This document shows, one piece after another, positions 3,894 through 21,011 of a DNA stretch of 23,599 nt (position 1 is its first letter; each line of letters opens with the position of its first letter). A model generated the notes under the pieces. The model searched no databases. It was not told the origin of the DNA and saw only the letters and a program-made list of their open reading frames with translations. The DNA is from Flexistipes sp. (GTDB lineage Bacteria; Chrysiogenota; Deferribacteres; Deferribacterales; Flexistipitaceae): the NCBI RefSeq assembly GCF_036172515.1, contig NZ_JAXKVW010000024.1:1-23599 (forward strand), written 5' to 3'. The position numbers were made by a program, and so were the translations under genes.

Positions 3894-4889
3894 TTATACA
3901 GCCTTTTCCATTATCATCTTATTTAACTTGGCCGACACACTGCCTTCTTTTATTATTTTTCGTGCTGCATTAAAGCCTTCTTTTAATGTATACATATTCA
4001 TTGTGTAAAGGCTGACGGCTGTATTAACTGCAATCAGGTCGGTCAGCTTTTCGTTTTTACCTTCTATGGTTTCCAGGAAAAGTTTTTTGGCATCTTCTTT
4101 TGAATTTACCACAGGCATGGGAAACTTTTCGAAAAAGCCGGAAGGGTCTATTTCAAATTTTTCAATTTTCCCGTCTTTGATATGGCGCACATAGGTTATA
4201 TCGGAGGATGAGATTTCATCGTAACCGTCTTTGGAGGAGTAAACGATAATGTTGTTTCTCTTCTGTATCCTGAGGGCTTCGGCATACAGATCCAGTTTAT
4301 CAGTCCTGTTGATTCCGATTGTCTGATAATCGGGGGAGCCCGGGTTCAGCATGGGTCCCAAATAGTTGAAAATGGTTGCCACACGAAGATCTTTTCTTAT
4401 TTTTGCTACATTTTTCAATGCCGGATGGTAGTGAGGGGCAAAAAGGAAAATGAAGTTGTTATTGTTGAAATAGGTACGGGAGTTTGTTTCGTCAAGTTTT
4501 GTTGGGACTCCGAGTTCATCCAGTATGTCTGCTGACCCGACTTTTCCGCTTTGTGCCATATTTCCATGTTTTAATACTTTTATTCCCATTGCCGCCAGGA
4601 CCAGGGAAACTGCTGTGGAGACATTTAAGGTTGATTTCCCGTCACCGCCGGTTCCGCAGGTGTCGATAGTTTTTGTAGCAGAGTGCTGAAACTTTACCTT
4701 ATGCTCATTTAAAACTGTTGCAGCTGCAGCGACCTCTTCAGCTGTTTCCCCTCTGAGTTTCATGGCTATCAGAGCGGAACCGATCCCGGCTTCAGATATT
4801 TCACCGGTGAGTATCCCGTTAAAGAGTGTTTTTACTTCATCAAAATCCAGCACTTTGCCGTTATTGACTTTTTGTAAAATATTATGCAT
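3894..4889 (-). CDS. trpD: anthranilate phosphoribosyltransferase
   Basis: 331 aa; GTGGDGKSTLNVSTA PRPP-binding motif; 8-nt overlap with trpG. Confidence 0.9.
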   Translation of the reverse strand: MHNILQKVNNGKVLDFDEVKTLFNGILTGEISEAGIGSALIAMKLRGETAEEVAAAATVLNEHKVKFQHSATKTIDTCGTGGDGKSTLNVSTAVSLVLAAMGIKVLKHGNMAQSGKVGSADILDELGVPTKLDETNSRTYFNNNNFIFLFAPHYHPALKNVAKIRKDLRVATIFNYLGPMLNPGSPDYQTIGINRTDKLDLYAEALRIQKRNNIIVYSSKDGYDEISSSDITYVRHIKDGKIEKFEIDPSGFFEKFPMPVVNSKEDAKKLFLETIEGKNEKLTDLIAVNTAVSLYTMNMYTLKEGFNAARKIIKEGSVSAKLNKMIMEKAV

Positions 4890-5457
4890 AGCTTACCTCC
4901 CTGTTGCTGCTTTTTGAGTATTCTATAAAATTATTAATTATCTTTTGTCCCTGACTGCTGAGATAGGACTCCGGATGAAACTGTACTCCGAATAAGTGTT
5001 TTGCGGAGTCTTCGACAGCCATTATTTCATTATCCGAAGCTGATCGCGCTATTGCTATATCATTCGCATCTACAACCAGCGAATGGTACCTTACTGCATC
5101 AAATGATTCGGTAAGTCCCGAAAGGAGTATACTTTCGTGCTGTTTCTTTACTGTATCCAGTTTGCCGTGTTTGATTGAAGCCGCTCTTCTTACAGGGTAT
5201 CCGAGATAATGGCAGATACACTGCATTCCCAGACAGACTCCAAAAATGGGTTTTGAGCCCAGATAGTGCTCCAGATATTTTAAAGAAGTGCCTGAGTTTG
5301 AAGGGTTTGAAGGCCCCGGTGATATAACAATGCCTTCGTATCTGTCTGCTGGTATAAATTCATCATTTTTTATCACATCGACTTTTTCCCCAGCTTTTAA
5401 GAAAAGACTATAAAGGTTGTATGTGAATGAATCGTAGTTATCAATTAGCAAAAACAT
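4882..5457 (-). CDS. trpG: anthranilate synthase component II (class-I glutamine amidotransferase)
   Basis: 191 aa; MFLLIDNYDSFTYNL start, catalytic GVCLGMQ Cys and GVQFHPES; overlaps trpE by 17 nt. Confidence 0.9.
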   Translation of the reverse strand: MFLLIDNYDSFTYNLYSLFLKAGEKVDVIKNDEFIPADRYEGIVISPGPSNPSNSGTSLKYLEHYLGSKPIFGVCLGMQCICHYLGYPVRRAASIKHGKLDTVKKQHESILLSGLTESFDAVRYHSLVVDANDIAIARSASDNEIMAVEDSAKHLFGVQFHPESYLSSQGQKIINNFIEYSKSSNREVSYA

Positions 5458-6910
5458 TTTCGCCCTCCAGATTTTTTATTCTGTCTATAGCCGTGAAGAG
5501 TGCTTTCAGCTTACCTTCCACTTCATGGTATTCCTTTGCCGGTATACTGTCGTAAACGATGCCGGCTCCTGCCCGAATGATTGTCTTATCGGGTTTTACC
5601 ATGGCGCTTCTGATGGTTATGCATGTATCAAGATTTCCGTTATAAGAGATATAACCGGCGCAGCCTGCGTAAAATCCTCTCGGTGATCTTTCACACTCAC
5701 TTATTATTTCCATTGCTCTGATTTTAGGTGCACCACTTACCGTCCCTGCCGGGAATGTGCTTACAAATGCATCGAGTGATGTTTTGTCATCTCTGAGTCT
5801 TCCCGATACCTCTGAAACGATATGGACTACGTGTGAATAGACTTCCGCATTAAAAGATTTCTCCACTTTTACTGAATCGGTGTCACAACTTGTGTAAAGG
5901 TCGTTTCTGGCCAGATCAAGAAGCATCAGATGTTCGGATTTTTCCTTTTCATCTTCAAGAAGCTCTTTTTTGATTTTTTCAATATCCTCTCCGACGGGAT
6001 ATGTCCCGGCTATCGGTTTTAGTGTTGCCTTACCGCTTTCCACTTTCAGATGAATTTCAGGGGATGAGCCCAGCATTGTTTTATCTTTCATTTTGAAATA
6101 AAACATATATGGAGAAGGATTTACATTTCTTAAGGATCTGTAAAAGCTCAGAGGATGGATGCTTCCCTTTACTTCATATTTATTGGAAAAGACGCATTGT
6201 ATAAGCTCCCCGTCAGCGATATCGGATTTTAGCTTATTAACCGTTTTTTCGAATTCTTCTTTAGAAAATTCTTTTGAAACGCTCAGTTTATCAGCGGATG
6301 TGTAGTTGTCAAAATTGAAGTCGTTTATTTCATCAGCCATTTTTCTTGTTCTTTTTACGGCTGTTTCGTAATTACTTTCTAAATTTCCGTTAGTTTCTGC
6401 ATTACAGGCGGCATAAACCCTTCCTGTCCTGTTGTCAAAGACATAGAATTCATTCATAAGCATTAGATAAATGAGGTTTTCATCGGCAGGCTCGGTGAGT
6501 TTATGTCTTAGAGTCCCCGTATAGTTGATGAATTCATAACCGAAATAACCCACATATCCTCCGGAAAATGCTCCGAACTTGGGATCCGCATATCCGTTAA
6601 ATTTTTCTATTTTGCTGTTGAGATAGTCCACCGGATTTATATCGATTTTTGTTTTTTTGCCGTTTTTCTCAACGTTAAGACTGCCGTTTTTAAGTGAAAC
6701 AATTTCGCTTGGATTTATTCCGAAAAACGAAAACCTTGAAAAAGTCTTGTCCAGATTTGCACTTTCCAGCAAAAATACACTGTCTCTGTTGGAGAAATTC
6801 TTCAACAAACCTATGGGGGTAAGGGTGTCGCCTACAATCTCACGATAAATGGTAATGTGAGAATATTTTTCTGAAAGTTTTTTAAATCTCTCTTTGTCCG
6901 GGTATATCAT
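5441..6910 (-). CDS. trpE: anthranilate synthase component I
   Basis: Chorismate-binding enzyme fold (…GAPKIRAMEII…GCAGYISYNG…AGAGIV). The track ORF begins at GTG 6991, but ATG at 6910-6908 (MIYPDKERF…) is preceded by a perfect AGGAGG (6914-6919) at 4 nt and avoids reading through the terminator hairpins. Start therefore set at 6910. Confidence 0.9.
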   Translation of the reverse strand: MIYPDKERFKKLSEKYSHITIYREIVGDTLTPIGLLKNFSNRDSVFLLESANLDKTFSRFSFFGINPSEIVSLKNGSLNVEKNGKKTKIDINPVDYLNSKIEKFNGYADPKFGAFSGGYVGYFGYEFINYTGTLRHKLTEPADENLIYLMLMNEFYVFDNRTGRVYAACNAETNGNLESNYETAVKRTRKMADEINDFNFDNYTSADKLSVSKEFSKEEFEKTVNKLKSDIADGELIQCVFSNKYEVKGSIHPLSFYRSLRNVNPSPYMFYFKMKDKTMLGSSPEIHLKVESGKATLKPIAGTYPVGEDIEKIKKELLEDEKEKSEHLMLLDLARNDLYTSCDTDSVKVEKSFNAEVYSHVVHIVSEVSGRLRDDKTSLDAFVSTFPAGTVSGAPKIRAMEIISECERSPRGFYAGCAGYISYNGNLDTCITIRSAMVKPDKTIIRAGAGIVYDSIPAKEYHEVEGKLKALFTAIDRIKNLEGENVFAN

Positions 6911-11377: not shown

Positions 11378-11538
11378 TCAGTTTCGCACTTCGCTGTGTC
11401 ATTGCGAAACTGAGCACTTAAGAATTTAAGTGCTCGCTTGTGGCAATCTCAAAATAATAATAAACGAGAGATTGCTTCGTCTACGCCCACGGGCGTACCC
11501 TCGCAAAGACTTGCAATAGGTACATGTGCGAAACTTGA
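11378..11538 (-). mobile_element. MITE-like element, copy A (inverted relative to copies B and C)
   Basis: Terminal inverted repeats TCA-GTTTCGCAC (left) and GTGCGAAACTTGA (right). The reverse complement shares blocks GTCTTTGCGAGG, GACGAAGCAATCTCTC and TTGAGATTGCCACAAGC with copy B. Internal perfect hairpins: GAGCACTTAA-gaat-TTAAGTGCTC, GCAATCTC/GAGATTGC and TACGCC-cacg-GGCGTA. Fills the whole der-tlpA intergenic gap. No flanking direct repeat was detected. Confidence 0.6.
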
Positions 11539-11576
11539 AGAAGTGAATTGATATCTGATGATTTTGGAGGAAATTT

Positions 11577-13748: not shown

Positions 13749-13929
13749 TCAAGTTTCGCACTTACACTGTTTTCGCGTCTTTGCGAGGAGTGAAAACGAC
13801 GAAGCAATCTCTCTACTTTTCTTGTTTTGAGATTGCCACAAGCCTGTTTCCACATGATTTCGCAAGGATGCCTATGGCATATATATTCGGTAGAAGCGAA
13901 TGCTAGACAAAACGAAGTGCGAAACTTGA
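13749..13929 (+). mobile_element. MITE-like element, copy B (reference orientation)
   Basis: TIRs TCAAGTTTCGCACTT (13749-) and AAGTGCGAAACTTGA (-13929), matching 15/15 as reverse complements. 8-bp flanks AGTGTAAT / TGTGTAAG match 6/8. Occupies the whole cytochrome-TPR intergenic gap. Confidence 0.6.
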
Positions 13930-13978
13930 TGTGTAAGTGGATAAATGCGTTAATTTAATATTAAAAAAGGAGCTGAAT

Positions 13979-14929
13979 ATGAATTACAGAATAGTTTTAG
14001 GATGCATTCTTTCTTTGTTGATTGTTTCAACTGTTATAGGTGCATTTCCTTTACAACAGCTCGAAAAGGGTGACACTGTTTCCATTCAAAAGTTTAAAGG
14101 ATTGAATAAGGAATTATCAGGTATAGATAAAAATTCAGAAACAAAGCTTTTGCTTCTTTGGAGGCACGATAAGCGTACGAATGTTGATACGATAAAAAGC
14201 TTTGCTGAAATGTGCAGCAAAAGGGATGTTCCCTGCATTGCGGTTGATCTGCAGGAAGGGACTATGGAACAAATTAAAAGTATTGTCGGAGCAGATGCAG
14301 CTGAAGATATATATTTTGCCCACGATAAGACTGGTGTAACTGATGACTGGGGTATTTTTACACTGCCGGTAACACTTTTCCTGGATAAAAATAACAAAGT
14401 AATAAATGCTGTCGGTTATGAAGGTCAGTATGCTGTTCAAGTGGGAAGATATGTAGATTTTCTCACCGGCAAAATTTCTGAAGAGGAATATAAAAAATTT
14501 GAAAACACGAGTGTGGTACATGACAGAAGAAGCAGACTGCCAAAAATCAATTTTATAAAAAGGCTTATAGAAGACGGTCAGCCCGAGGATGCTAAAGAGC
14601 GTCTGGCAAAGCTGGATAAAAAAGACCTTACTATGGAGGAAAAGCTAAATCTTGCTGAAGTTTATCTGAAGCTTGACATGCCGGATAAGGTTGAAGAAGC
14701 GCTGCAAGGTGTTTCCGAATATAATGTTGGAGCCAAGTTTTACCGGGCGTACGCAGCTTATCTCAAGGGGAATTTAGATAAGGCATTAAAGACGCTTCAT
14801 TCGATAGAGAAGATATATCCTCAGAAAAAGAAACTTTTTTATTTGTTAGGCGAAATATATAAACAAAAAGGTGATTATAAAAATGCTGCAGAATATTTTG
14901 AAAAATCTTGCAATAATTCTGCTATTTAG
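13979..14929 (+). CDS. secreted/anchored protein: CxxC-less thioredoxin-like domain fused to C-terminal TPR repeats
   Basis: The track ORF starts at GTG 13937, but ATG 13979 (MNYRIVLGCILSLLIV…) follows an AAGGAG SD at 7 nt. N-terminal hydrophobic segment. Central domain has TlpA-like secondary pattern, but LWRHDKRT sits where WCPPC would be. The C-terminal third has TPR-like AxxYxxxG periodicity. Confidence 0.6.
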   Translation: MNYRIVLGCILSLLIVSTVIGAFPLQQLEKGDTVSIQKFKGLNKELSGIDKNSETKLLLLWRHDKRTNVDTIKSFAEMCSKRDVPCIAVDLQEGTMEQIKSIVGADAAEDIYFAHDKTGVTDDWGIFTLPVTLFLDKNNKVINAVGYEGQYAVQVGRYVDFLTGKISEEEYKKFENTSVVHDRRSRLPKINFIKRLIEDGQPEDAKERLAKLDKKDLTMEEKLNLAEVYLKLDMPDKVEEALQGVSEYNVGAKFYRAYAAYLKGNLDKALKTLHSIEKIYPQKKKLFYLLGEIYKQKGDYKNAAEYFEKSCNNSAI

Positions 14930-15060
14930 TATATCTACTGCTGCCTTTGCGGCCGGAAGCGAACTGCATATTTATTTTCCCCGTAAAGGCAGTGTTGTTA
15001 ACAGCGACAGTATCTTTTAGTTATAGCTAAAAAAGTATCTAATTTAGAACTTCCAAGAAC

Positions 15061-15097
15061 AAGGCCTTTGAATCAGTGCCCCATATTCAAAGGCCTT
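15061..15097. repeat. perfect 13-bp inverted repeat (hairpin/cruciform) AAGGCCTTTGAAT-n11-ATTCAAAGGCCTT
   Basis: Seen directly. The stem is exactly complementary with an 11-nt loop CAGTGCCCCAT. Neither strand has a U-tract after it, so it is not an obvious intrinsic terminator. Lies 130 nt after the TPR gene stop. Confidence 0.5.
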
Positions 15098-15589
15098 AAA
15101 ACTATTGGAGTCTAGGTACTTATGAAAATCAGGCTATGCCATTTCGTATTAGTGTCTTACACATTTCAGTGAAATCTCATCATGGTGGGAAAATCTATTC
15201 TCATCCAGCAGTGTGAATTTTACAAAGCGGGTTCTGTCCACAAAGAGCATTTTTGTGGTGCCGCTGTCAAGGCTGGTCAGCCAGAAGAAATAAAGCTTCA
15301 GATTATCTGTATAATTGTAGGTGCTGCAGCCTACAATTTTATAATTTTCACTGCATATCATAATAAACACCATAAATAAGTACTTATTTATTATATAAAA
15401 AAATAAAAATTTTGTAAGCGAAAATTTGATATTGGCTTAACTGAGAGTTTTGAAAAATTCTGGAAGCAGGGCTTCAGCCTGCAATGTTTATCTTGAAACC
15501 CAGTGTTGTAAAGAGGCGGGACTATCCGAGCACTTAAGTTTTAAGTGCTCGGCCGAAAACTTCGAAAAACACATTATTCAAACCTATTA

Positions 15590-15714
15590 ACCTTGAACTT
15601 TGAACATTGAACTAACCTCACTCTCACATTCACACTCACTTTGCACTTGGTCCTTGGAACTTACCACTTACCACGTAGTACTTAGTACTTATCACTTAGC
15701 ACTAACTACCTCTC
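15590..15714. repeat. array of ~18 degenerate 6-7-nt tandem units (ACNTTGA / ACTCTC / ACTTNNN)
   Basis: Seen directly. Units read ACCTTGA ACTTTGA ACATTGA … ACTCTC ACATTC ACACTC ACTTTGC ACTTGGT CCTTGGA ACTTACC ACTTACC ACGTAGT ACTTAGT ACTTATC ACTTAGC ACTAACT ACCTCTC. The period is not a multiple of 3 and there is no ORF, so it is non-coding. Lies in the 3' flank of trmI. Confidence 0.6.
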
Positions 15715-15781
15715 TATTTGACATAGCTCTTAAAAAAATGGGAGGACACCAAAAACATTGAAGATAATATTCATTTAAAAG

Positions 15782-16561
15782 TTAAGAGATGCTGGTCTTT
15801 CTTGCTCTTACAATAAATGCGCTGTGATTGTACATCCACATCTCGGGTCTGACTGACAAACCGTCGACTTTCCAGGGGCGCTTTATTATTTCGAATGTGC
15901 TGAGGTCATCAAAAAAACCGCTTGCTTTCAGTGTATCCACATATGTTTTTACCTGCAGGATTGTTGGTATGTAAGAAACGATAATTCCCCCGCCCACAAG
16001 ACCGTTTTTTGTATGCTCTATAACATGCCAGGGTTCCGGCACATCCAGCAAAATCCTGTCATATATTCCCTCAAATCCTTCGTAAATATTACCAATTTTT
16101 ATATCATGTATCTCTGTTAATTCTCTGCAGAAATCATCGATAAATTTTTTTGACTGTTCGGCGAAATCCTCCCTGATTTCATATGTTGTAAGTCTGCCCT
16201 GGTTTCCGAGAGCCCGGAGCAGTGCCATAGATAAAGCACCCTGGCCGATACCCGACTCCAATACATTAAGACCGGGATAGATATCAGCTTCCATCAGCAT
16301 TTGGGCAGTATCTTTGGGATATATAATCTGGGCGTTTCGTTTCAGATTCATTACATAGTCTGTATATGTGGTGCTGAAGATGCGATATTTAAAATTTTTG
16401 TTTGTTTTTGCAGTACCCCCGTCACCCGCTTCTATAATATCATTATGATCTATAAAACCGTACTGACTGGAAAAACGCCCCGTTTCCTTGAGCTTTACCA
16501 TGTGTCTTCTGTTTTTATGGTCGATTAAGACGACTCTGTCACCGTAATTAATATTCTTCAT
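15782..16561 (-). CDS. trmI: tRNA (adenine-N1)-methyltransferase, TrmI/Gcd14 family
   Basis: 259 aa; N-terminal small beta domain (GDRVVLIDHKNRRHMVKL) followed by a SAM-MTase fold with LESGIGQGALSMAL motif I and LLDVPEPW motif. Confidence 0.75.
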   Translation of the reverse strand: MKNINYGDRVVLIDHKNRRHMVKLKETGRFSSQYGFIDHNDIIEAGDGGTAKTNKNFKYRIFSTTYTDYVMNLKRNAQIIYPKDTAQMLMEADIYPGLNVLESGIGQGALSMALLRALGNQGRLTTYEIREDFAEQSKKFIDDFCRELTEIHDIKIGNIYEGFEGIYDRILLDVPEPWHVIEHTKNGLVGGGIIVSYIPTILQVKTYVDTLKASGFFDDLSTFEIIKRPWKVDGLSVRPEMWMYNHSAFIVRARKTSIS

Positions 16562-18647: not shown

Positions 18648-18779
18648 TCAAATTTCGCACTTAGTTCTGTTATTGTGAGCGTAGCGAAGCAATCTCTAAT
18701 ACAAGACATGAGATCGCCGCGGGTTTTTGCCCTCGCGATGACGCTGTCAGACGTTCATAGGTGCAAGTGCGAAACTTGA
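18648..18779 (+). mobile_element. MITE-like element, copy C, flanked by a perfect 8-bp direct repeat ATAAATTT
   Basis: TIRs TCAAATTTCGCACTT / AAGTGCGAAACTTGA. Shares internal GCGAAGCAATCTCT with copy B. ATAAATTT at 18640-18647 (includes the acyl-CoA ligase stop TAA) is repeated exactly at 18780-18787, consistent with a target-site duplication. Confidence 0.65.
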
Positions 18780-19859: not shown

Positions 19860-20651
19860 TTATTTGATTACAATGAGTGCGGCAGGATCAAGTATTCTGA
19901 AGGTGAAAGATTCTGTAAAATAAAGGGTAACCTCTTTACTGTCGTGCTGCAGATATCCTATGGATAAATCCTGTCCCAGTGTAAGTCTGAAATCGCCGCC
20001 TCTTTCAGATACCAAATAGGCTTCTGAAATATTGCTGCTTACCTTTACAGATCCTCCGATAATATCTTCAATCTGTTTCTTCAATGGGTATCCTTTATTT
20101 AATCCGACAATATTTTTCATCTGATCAACGGAAACAACGAGTGAATAGGGGCCGTCAACGGAAGCACTTTTCAGTTTGGCAACAGCTTCCGCTGTTACAT
20201 AAGGGAGGTCTTCGGTCTTGGTTGGCAGTTTTAAAGAACTATGTTCACTTGAGTCTTTCAGCCCTTTAATATTTGCTTTTTCAAGACCGTAATATACAGA
20301 TTTGTCTTCGAAGACAGCTATCTTTTTTGCCGCATCTTCAAGGGAAGAAAGGTCAATATCTTCAGCCCCTCTTAATACGCTGTCCAACTCCCACAATTTG
20401 AGTTTAAACGGGACTCTGGCTTCGACTAGCGGCTGTACTTTGGGGATACCATATTCAACAGCTGAGCCTTTATCCGTTACAATTTCCAGCCTTCCTGTCT
20501 TTACAGATTCTGTATCAATTCCCAACGGTCCTTCAACATCCACAAATTTTCTGACACTTAGGTGTGAGGAAAGGGTTCTGTTTGCCTGAAGATTTATTTC
20601 TTCCCACGCTTTATCCGGGATGGGTGCCAGATTTTGTCTTAATATATTCAT
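19860..20651 (-). CDS. encapsulin nanocompartment shell protein (family 1, HK97 fold)
   Basis: 263 aa. The N-terminus MNILRQNLAPIPDKAWEEI…RKFVDVEGPLG…LWELD…DLSSLEDAAKKIAVFED closely tracks the Thermotoga-type family-1 encapsulin sequence as I remember it. Confidence 0.85.
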   Translation of the reverse strand: MNILRQNLAPIPDKAWEEINLQANRTLSSHLSVRKFVDVEGPLGIDTESVKTGRLEIVTDKGSAVEYGIPKVQPLVEARVPFKLKLWELDSVLRGAEDIDLSSLEDAAKKIAVFEDKSVYYGLEKANIKGLKDSSEHSSLKLPTKTEDLPYVTAEAVAKLKSASVDGPYSLVVSVDQMKNIVGLNKGYPLKKQIEDIIGGSVKVSSNISEAYLVSERGGDFRLTLGQDLSIGYLQHDSKEVTLYFTESFTFRILDPAALIVIK

Positions 20652-20663
20652 TATTTACCCCCT

Positions 20664-21011
20664 TTATTTATTAAGTTTGCCTATATTCAGACTTTTGTTA
20701 TCACTGTCCTGGGATTCTGCCTCGCCTTCTTCCAAATGGGCAATATTTCCTTCGGTAAACAGATATGTTCTCAGTTCATTGTCCCATGCAGGCATATTAC
20801 GTCTCAGCCATTCCAGTGCCATACACGCATGCTCGATTTCTTCATCCCTGTTATGTGCCAATATCTCCTTTAAGTTTTCATCATCTGTTGCATCGACTCT
20901 CTGCTGGTACCAGTCGATTGCTTCAATCTCCTCTTTGAGACTGTTTAATGCGCGGGTAAAATTCTTGGTCTCTTCACTTAATTTTTCTTCGGGCTCATGG
21001 TATTGTGACAT
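20664..21011 (-). CDS. encapsulated ferritin-like cargo protein (EncFtn/Flp) with C-terminal targeting peptide
   Basis: 115 aa. Motif LKEILAHNRDEEIEHACMALEWLRRNMPAWDNELRTYLFT is typical of EncFtn. C-terminal SLNIGKLNK fits the SLxIGxLK cargo-loading peptide. AGGAGG SD at 6 nt; stop lies 13 nt before the encapsulin start. Confidence 0.8.
   Translation of the reverse strand: MSQYHEPEEKLSEETKNFTRALNSLKEEIEAIDWYQQRVDATDDENLKEILAHNRDEEIEHACMALEWLRRNMPAWDNELRTYLFTEGNIAHLEEGEAESQDSDNKSLNIGKLNK

Follow-up and report, generated by a model that had tools for sequence, protein, structure and literature searches.

Heptanucleotide long simple sequence repeats (SSRs) are the closest described kind of repeat to the element examined here, a tandem array of degenerate 6-7-nucleotide (nt) units located downstream of trmI, a tRNA methyltransferase gene, in a contig of Flexistipes sp. 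(NZ_JAXKVW010000024.1, positions 1 to 23,599; this whole stretch of 23,599 nt is called the window). In most prokaryotic genomes no category of long simple repeats was more abundant than that with heptanucleotide units, for which an origin by polymerase slippage has been suggested (Mrazek et al. 2007, as relayed in PMC4679880). Like the long SSRs with 5-11-nt units treated in PMC4679880 and PMC4692102, for which slippage is proposed, the array consists of head-to-tail 6-7-nt units, is intergenic, is longer than expected by chance in the 23.6-kb window and differs in unit number between strains. It departs from them in that its copies are degenerate (~80% matches) instead of near-perfect, in that three unit types are concatenated, and in that the whole is one arm of an inverted pair. 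An earlier note on this DNA, drawn from the letters alone, had recognized no known element family in the array. That statement has to be narrowed, given that heptanucleotide tandem repeats were already described in bacteria (PMC4679880, PMC4692102) and that the NTTGAAC end of the array matches widespread arrays.

Other described repeats offer partial parallels. TAACTGA direct repeats occur in marine Beggiatoaceae, cyanobacteria and Bacteroidetes (MacGregor 2015, PMC4679880). They resemble the GTTCAAN arrays described below in forming intergenic heptamer arrays across distant phyla, often abutting start codons and with no known binder, but they are built on a different unit, are nearly perfect and mostly stand in 'forward' orientation shortly before start codons, and no inverted pairs of them were described. 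No TAACTGA repeat was found in the array sequence, and the nearest real start codon is ~215 nt away. The G-quadruplex-forming GGGNATC heptamers of Xanthomonas and Nostoc (Rehm et al. 2015, PMC4692102) show likeness in their enrichment between co-directional open reading frames (ORFs), their under-representation between divergent ones, a position near start or stop codons and a copy number that varies. They have quadruplex-capable G-tracts and a four-unit preference, whereas the window array has no G-tracts. The SSR in the promoter and 5' untranslated region (UTR) of hmw1A and hmw2A of Haemophilus influenzae (PMC8262952, PMC12721329) shares the 7-nt unit, the intergenic location and a slippage-driven copy number. 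The hmw repeats are perfect and tune a defined downstream gene, whereas in the window degenerate units precede a pseudogene. REP/BIME elements have in common with the locus a mosaic of short modules and hairpins between convergent or co-directional genes, variation between strains, and insertion sequences (an IS110-family one in the type strain). Unlike the window array, REPs are single imperfect palindromes of 20-40 nt and not tandem heptamer runs. Finally, the heptanucleotide repeats of the Calothrix type, known as the STRRs of heterocystous cyanobacteria, have the consensus units CCCCAGT, TTGGTCA and CAACAGT. Like the present array they are non-coding tandem heptamers of several unit types to which no function is assigned, but they are dispersed genome-wide in another phylum and their units differ, whereas the window holds one array and the arrays seen in ~100 kb of Deferribacteraceae DNA, mostly Flexistipes, lie at one locus; we do not count the array among them. 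Three tandem heptanucleotide repeats have been reported from Calothrix PCC 7601 (as cited in PMC4692102).

The array and its sub-arrays, delimited in part with Tandem Repeats Finder (TRF), are as follows.

15590..15714, no strand assigned: whole composite array of ~17-18 degenerate 6-7-nt units (sequence, TRF and lag-7 autocorrelation).
15589..15613, minus strand: GTTCAAN sub-array (TRF period 7, 3.6 copies, consensus AACTTTG).
15617..15639, no strand assigned: hexamer sub-array, CTCACA on the plus and GAGTGT/GAATGT on the minus strand (TRF period 6, 3.8 copies, consensus CTCACA).
15659..15714, no strand assigned: ACTTANN sub-array, NNTAAGT on the minus strand, ~8 units (TRF 15659-15703, period 7, 6.4 copies, consensus ACTTAGC).

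The degenerate tandem array that the earlier note had placed at 15590-15714 is real. The sequence is as read there, the formal TRF check that it proposed returned three arrays with the periods and consensus units listed, and the lag-7 self-identity lies above that of all shuffles. Over the 125 nt this identity is 0.559, compared to a contig mean of 0.263 (standard deviation 0.047; 4695 windows), and in a scan of the contig the value was reached solely in windows overlapping the array. Shuffling the region 5000 times with dinucleotides preserved gave a mean of 0.277 and a maximum of 0.458, so that none of the shuffles reached 0.559. Comparable periodicity elsewhere, which would have reduced the significance of the array, was not seen: the array gives the top lag-7 value of the 23.6-kb window. 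The count of ~18 units holds (about 17-18) if very degenerate units are included, and falls otherwise.

Three adjoining degenerate sub-arrays (NTTGAAC x3.6, CTCACA x3.8 and ACTTANN x6-8) make up the region, which is C-rich and G-poor on the plus strand (C 31%, G 9.6% over 125 nt) and purine-rich on the minus strand. The first of them reads GTTCAAT GTTCAAA GTTCAAG G on the minus strand and holds three in-register TTGAAC units at 15592-15613, while the ACTTANN sub-array also shows a 21-nt super-period in TRF. Copies match at 79-83% of positions and at most two adjacent units are identical, which makes the array degenerate and not near-perfect.

Comparison with related Deferribacteraceae loci (L001-L022; L018 is the type strain, F. 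sinusarabici DSM 4947, CP002858) revealed how the array varies. The trmI product is identical to Flexistipes sp. MEC9493292.1, encoded on a 23,599-bp contig, and relatives at 88-95% identity are Flexistipes or Deferribacteraceae metagenome-assembled genomes and the type strain. In the window and the 22 related loci, a survey of about 100 kb of Deferribacteraceae DNA, mostly Flexistipes, heptamer or hexamer arrays were found only from trmI downstream through a set of PilZ-like genes. An independent Logan assembly (L001) is identical in the array and the independent assemblies L008 and L009 are near-identical; the array is therefore not an assembly artefact. The comparison relies on the following segments.

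15782..16561, minus strand: trmI, tRNA (adenine58-N1)-methyltransferase (Pfam GCD14 and TrmI-like_N).
15725..15781, minus strand: conserved 57-nt 3' flank of trmI; contains CCTCCC, which is a Shine-Dalgarno-like (SD-like) GGGAGG, and a 6-codon ORF on the plus strand.
15715..15724, no strand assigned: anchor TATTTGACAT (ATGTCAAATA on the minus strand), found in every lineage with an array or filler at the site.
15584..15724, no strand assigned: 141-nt segment (array and anchor TATTTGACAT), precisely missing from L010-L012.

All close relatives have ~57 nt after the trmI stop in common; this 3' flank is near-identical in L008 and L010 and 75.7% identical over 74 nt to L002. In the window and L008/L009 it is followed by ATGTCAAATAGAGAGG and then by the array, which begins 68 nt past the trmI stop. 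Global alignment placed an unambiguous 12-nt (two-hexamer) gap between the window and L008/L009 within the hexamer run 15617..15639. In the TAAGT block, GATAAGT ACTAAGT is displaced by exactly 7 nt between the window and L008, a difference that the aligner renders as 4 substitutions and that one unit gained and one lost would account for equally well. The flanking 72 nt differ between the window and L008 by 3 substitutions and 0 indels. The two-hexamer indel and the one-unit shift, next to a flank free of indels, support the earlier suggestion of a slipped-strand SSR that has degenerated and is potentially polymorphic in length.

Array length also differs more widely among strains. In L010-12 the downstream comparison showed AAGAGCT abutting GAGCTTTGAATAATGT directly, the 141-nt segment being absent. 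The window, L008/9 and L002/13/14/16 all have the anchor, and the type strain has it in the form ATGTCAATTT. In L002/13/14/16 the anchor ATGTCAAATAGAGA is kept and followed by ~40 nt of non-repetitive filler. At the anchor the type strain carries other units: its G-rich array there is a different one, with heptamers such as GGTGAGA and GTGGTGA, and closes with AGTTAATTAGTACTAAGTG, a sequence similar to the beginning of the array in the window. L003/L015 and L021/L022 have a wholly different neighbourhood after trmI; in L021/L022 a convergent GH57 gene lies at most 2 nt past trmI, which indicates that the region is dispensable. Overall, the region past trmI is dispensable and a synteny breakpoint, and the array evolves fast, with polymorphism at the scale of single units and presence or absence among strains. 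It could be usable as a Flexistipes strain marker. A search of metagenomes for further alleles with a flank 21-mer gave 0 matches.

The origin of the array is illuminated by a two-armed paralogue. In L013, L016 and L008 trmI is followed by a 224-aa gene (A) and then by a 223-aa gene with a weak PilZ match (B). A measures 224-228 aa in sister strains, and A and B are paralogues at 28-31% identity. The spacer between them begins with a G-rich array that is co-linear with the window array (95/127 identities, 75%, E = 1e-18 in L013; 84% over 45 nt in L010). The motif order is common to both: an NNTAAGT run, TCCAAGG, GCAAGTGCAA, GNGTGT-type hexamers, GAGGTT and a GTTCAAN run. This G-rich arm is followed by a C-rich array (CTCAACC, CCTATA, ACTTAGN, CTTAAC and similar), the outer part of which is the reverse complement of the G-rich arm. 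In L013 the two arms form a long imperfect hairpin (RNA fold -62 kcal/mol, z = -2.3), in which the pairing partner is an ACTTAAC-type run and not NTTGAAC. After the C-rich arm stands TGGCATTTTTTTTGCT in L013 and TGGCACTATTTTTGCT in the type strain; both match sigma-54 -24/-12 spacing, and on this pattern a putative sigma-54-like promoter lies at the end of the A-B spacer, before B. The two arms are arranged likewise in L010, where an inserted repeat module separates them. In the type strain trmI is followed in turn by the G-rich array, by an IS110-family transposase gene and REP-like modules, by two copies of the C-rich arm, and by B.

A and B are tandem Cys-rich PilZ-like paralogues specific to this locus (L013, 4521-5195 and 5485-6156). 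The IS110-family transposase gene of L018 is flanked by two GAGATTGCTTCGTATCCGCCCGAAGGCGGTTCCTCGCAATG module copies (4060-5760), between the G-rich array and the C-rich arms, and intergenic repeat modules of this kind may be targets of insertion sequences. Repeat modules with inverted ends of their own also lie within or between heptamer arrays in L010 (4900-5030) and in the metagenome locus L045, where the array continues beyond the inserted module; heptamer arrays may thus act as landing sites for small mobile elements.

Little of this layout survives in the window, where one gene remnant accompanies the array.

15149..15373, minus strand: remnant of PilZ-like paralogue A, 74 codons (tblastn, 93% identity to residues 1-72 of the L010 228-aa protein).

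Searches of the window with tblastn found nothing matching the rest of A, or B, and no C-rich or complementary arm was found there. With A reduced to residues 1-72, and B and the C-rich arm missing, the window array is consequently an orphan arm in a decaying locus. Since the closest copy of the array lies upstream of a PilZ-like gene in sister strains, this gene family may matter as much as trmI.

We hold with moderate confidence that the array is an orphan arm remodelled by replication slippage and probably inert in the window. It would be a composite, non-coding minisatellite in which several kinds of 6-7-nt unit each form short runs, and it would grow, shrink and turn over by replication slippage and by unequal exchange between similar adjacent units. 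It is a paralogous copy of the G-rich arm of the two-armed pair that fills the A-B spacer in sister strains. The locus is decaying in the window, A having been cut to 74 codons and B and the C-rich arm having gone, and the orphan arm would be carried passively on a trmI read-through transcript, without a sequence-specific job. Read-through from trmI is plausible because the minus strand shows no terminator-like site from the trmI stop up to the array, and the presence of three unit types in one array argues against a single binding motif. On this contig the array would then be a decaying hypervariable repeat in a rearranging intergenic region, and not a gene, a small RNA or a switch.

The array is non-coding. 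The earlier note had stated that no ORF covers it. Strictly, a 53-aa ORF with a TTG start (15600-15761, plus strand) spans it, yet in substance the statement stands, as this ORF is not conserved: in L008 two shorter ORFs (34 aa and 26 aa), which lie in different frames, take its place, and L010-12 lack the segment, and on these grounds it was rejected as a gene. That a small protein is made from this ORF, or from the 6-codon ORF behind GGGAGG, is scarcely credible. An open TTG frame does span the array and a strong SD-like GGGAGG ~10 nt before a TTG/ATG is kept in several strains, but beyond the broken frames a period of 7 is incompatible with a coding repeat, and the 6-codon ORF varies in length and runs antisense into trmI. 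In the window this SD-like sequence stands ~10 nt before the TTG of the 6-codon ORF (MKIIFI; 15745-15781, plus strand), antisense to the 3' end of trmI, and GGGAGG and the start are kept in L008, L010, L002 and the type strain.

The GTTCAAN sub-array, ~169 nt past the trmI stop, belongs to a wider family, defined operationally here as at least 3 tandem units with the core GTTCAA. Loci L023-L142 are metagenome loci and L143-L262 viral ones, and the figures that follow hold among the matches listed. The 22-mer GTTCAATGTTCAAAGTTCAAGG (minus strand of 15589-15613) is common to the window, L008 and the L013 paralogue. Metagenome contigs of 38-64% GC contain it without mismatch at 120 sites or more, and one of these contigs was assigned to Candidatus Binatia by its EF-G. 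At least 2 TTGAAC hexamers occur within 250 nt downstream in 60/120 of the metagenome sites listed and upstream in 2/120; in the viral arrays listed the partner is downstream in 45/171 and upstream in 2/171. This skew (60:2 and 45:2) shows that the order of the arms is fixed, with GTTCAAN first and NTTGAAC second. By crude gene calls, 46 of the sites lie between co-directional, 13 between convergent and 4 between divergent genes, and the median gap to the stop or start codon of the neighbour is 20-25 nt on the side of the GTTCAAN arm and ~70 nt on the other. Members with a single arm favor neither strand with respect to the genes around them (9 vs 10). TRF arrays in family loci have period 7, 14 or 21 in 322 of 582 cases, and most of the heptamers are GTTCAAN variants. 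In viral contigs GTTCAAN x4 occurs in at least 120 stretches, compared to 11 for GTCTAAN x4 and 10 for GACATTN x4, and is thus at least 11-fold commoner than these composition-matched controls. In certain phage contigs 3-5 arrays occur between cistrons, every one of them shortly before a ribosome-binding site. ACTTANN was not supported as a special family of the same sort: ACTTANN x4 and the controls ATCTANN and CATTANN each occur at least 120 times in viral contigs, and no excess was seen.

The window array shares the core with this family, and its site is intergenic, near gene ends and between co-directional or convergent genes, not divergent ones. It lacks the downstream reverse-complement arm, a partner that about half of the metagenome sites listed possess (60/120). 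The free seventh bases of the two arms were complementary at 1-2 of 4 positions in by-eye checks (L047, L053, L039 and L062). No Rfam family matched the GTTCAAN arrays in 20 related and family loci, and no paper containing GTTCAAG or NTTGAAC array strings was found in the literature searched. TrmI methylates A58 of the T-loop. A link between TrmI and the T-loop-like GTTCAA was considered and is treated as coincidence, since the same arrays adjoin many unrelated genes.

It is possible, although we regard it as doubtful, that GTTCAAN/NTTGAAC arrays constitute an undescribed class of intergenic element that crosses phyla and is carried by phages, in which 6 nt form a conserved core and the seventh base is free, the arms keep a fixed order and the arrays are positioned tightly at gene boundaries. 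The Flexistipes arrays would be diverged members, and the 7-nt period would stem from a conserved trans partner or dedicated spreading and not from plain slippage. If such a common partner or mechanism exists, it would bear on why seven-base units dominate the long simple repeats of prokaryotes. The GTTCAAN family, a by-product of the analysis of the array, is a lead worth following.

Three side observations concern these family loci. A palindromic, MITE-like (miniature inverted-repeat transposable element-like) element of ~250 nt with a GTTCAAN/NTTGAAC hairpin at its center (..cccggattattcac ... gtgaataatccgggcta) recurs in many soil and sediment contigs of ~54-59% GC (L023, L026, L030, L036, L037, L042, L043, L049, L054, L056 and L063). 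In the unrelated contigs L028 and L118, (GTTCAAG)n followed by (TGGAACN)n immediately precedes a gene whose product begins with a prepilin-type N-terminal motif (RGFT(L/V)(L/V)E). In L141, L034, L107, L086 and L209 other long heptamer arrays stand beside GTTCAAN runs (CCCCTGT/TCCCTGT x about 25, CAACCACT, TTAAGGG/TTAAGTG, GTTTCTA and ATTTCCC), with several motif types per spacer, as in Flexistipes.

Some of the evidence weighs against an inert array remodelled by slippage. In the NNTAAGT units the information content is 1.4-2.0 bits at positions 4-7 (A, A, G, T) and 0.5-0.9 bits at positions 1-3, whereas pure duplication followed by random mutation predicts an even spread; note that units with mutated cores are partly hidden by the criteria used to recognize units, which qualifies the unevenness. 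Furthermore, the GTTCAAN core is exactly common to arrays in very different genomes and phages, the order of the arms is fixed and divergent regions are avoided. This family pattern hints at selection or specific spreading, and a single arm might keep some activity. Complete two-arm elements may be selected, for example as intercistronic hairpins.

In an alternative explanation the array is a working RNA element in the trmI 3' UTR or in a PilZ-like leader, acting as an intercistronic hairpin, or half of one, that sets transcript ends, stability or RNase III-type processing, a function that the complete two-arm elements may likewise have. We consider this unlikely. The minus strand free of terminator-like sites from the trmI stop to the array, the long hairpin of the complete L013 pair, the proximity of family arrays to stop and start codons with their predominance between co-directional and convergent genes, and the phage arrays between cistrons just upstream of ribosome-binding sites all agree with such a role. 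Yet the window lacks a complementary arm, and the RNA fold of 15440-15790 is significant on neither strand when compared to shuffles (z = -1.15 and -1.65), the L013 hairpin itself reaching only z = -2.3; close strains do without the array, single arms are unbiased in strand, and no Rfam family corresponds to them. Rfam searches of the window at the gathering threshold, and of 14900-15850 at an E-value threshold, returned chance-level matches only, and those of the 20 related and family loci returned only a tRNA; no tRNA or tmRNA genes were found in the window. The idea that the array is part of a small RNA gained no support, there being no Rfam match and no significant fold on either strand. 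Two specific RNA-binding candidates were rejected as well. A CsrA sponge of the CsrB/RsmZ type would contrast with a single GGA per strand and no Rfam match, and HutP/TRAP-like UAG repeats with a UAG that occupies variable positions of the unit.

The array might alternatively provide tandem DNA sites for a protein that coats repeats. Such a protein could be of the omega/ParG type, with a ribbon-helix-helix fold, or it could activate the PilZ-like genes from their sigma-54-like promoters. We judge this explanation rather improbable. The heptad operators (WATCACW) bound by omega are a precedent. The conserved AAGT and the variable positions 1-3 of NNTAAGT resemble a site composed of core and spacer, the 21-nt super-period approximates two helical turns, and the paralogous arrays end ~20-40 nt from TGGCA-N7-TTGC or TGGCAC-N5-TTGC motifs, sigma-54-like, upstream of B. 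Against this, the three unit types have different cores, consecutive sites spaced 7 bp apart do not share a face of the helix, no sigma-54-like motif is seen by eye next to the window copy, and L010-12 and L013 lack the array ahead of the same gene. An omega/ParG heptad operator was rejected on the single WATCACW in the array, a motif without enrichment in the window (18 observed vs 15.5 expected). No DNA-binding gene was identified beside the array, small ORFs being unscreened for ribbon-helix-helix folds. The proposal of tandem binding sites for a protein, on DNA or on RNA, thus gains no support, with three unit types, one WATCACW and one GGA per strand.

Promoters and switches were considered in the same manner. 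A consensus scan gave no promoter matches overlapping the array. The conserved TTGACA at 15719-15724 was rejected as part of a sigma-70 promoter, having no acceptable -10 element at 16-18 nt and no counterpart in the plus-strand scan. A phase-variable contingency SSR was likewise rejected, as the units are degenerate, no promoter match overlaps them and the downstream gene is truncated.

The composition of the plus strand is rut-like. A Rho-loading region that blocks antisense transcription into trmI would account for this C-rich, G-poor strand, for the little structure predicted across the array and for its position just before the 3' end of a convergent gene, but we regard it as very unlikely. 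Two terminator-like hairpins already lie upstream on the plus strand (15313-15338 and 15466-15482), composition leaves the 7-nt period unexplained, the family occurs in both orientations relative to transcription, and close strains lack the array.

Other features of the 850-bp gap that holds the array are as follows; its neighbours are trmI, the TPR gene, a cytochrome c gene and the PilZ-like remnant.

13937-14929, plus strand: tetratricopeptide repeat (TPR) gene, which forms the border of the 850-bp gap opposite trmI.
15390..15418, minus strand: sigma-70-like promoter match CTTACA-17-TATAAT (consensus scan, 10/12 positions; a match only).
15455..15583, minus strand: mosaic repeat module TTTGAATAATGT ... 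GCAGGCTGAAGCCCTGC (partly by-eye alignment).
15463..15482, no strand assigned: GC-rich 5-bp hairpin, terminator-like on both strands (terminator-like scan; in L008 with altered stem bases).
15526..15552, no strand assigned: 12-bp hairpin CCGAGCACTTAA-GTTT-TAAGTGCTCGG, the core of which has a second copy at 11412-11435.

The promoter match stands upstream of the truncated PilZ-like gene. Sister strains carry the mosaic module again behind trmI and behind the A-B array pair; L008 has two copies, and in L010 one copy follows the C-rich arm. The hairpin at 15526-15552 is paired in the minimum free energy and centroid folds of both strands and is the sole robust structure of 15440-15790; in the window AGCACTTAAG is found solely there and at 11412-11435.

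A MITE-like intergenic element occurs three times in the window (11380-11539, 13750-13929 and 18649-18779), with terminal inverted repeats (C)AAGTTTCGCACTT ... AAGTGCGAAACTTG and modules GAGATTGCTTCG ... CTCGCAA(A/T)G inside. It contains, at 11412-11435, the hairpin GAGCACTTAAG..TTAAGTGCTC that appears again at 15526-15552. A GCACTTA core common to the array and other intergenic repeats was rejected: the motif is weakly enriched in the window (6 observed vs 2.5 expected), and 6/6 copies lie in intergenic hairpin or MITE-like repeats and 0 in the array. Elsewhere in the window, an encapsulin shell gene (Linocin_M18; 19860-21011, minus strand) has an EncFtn-like gene upstream, and the 5' end of a 16S rRNA gene reaches the contig edge (23527-23599, plus strand).

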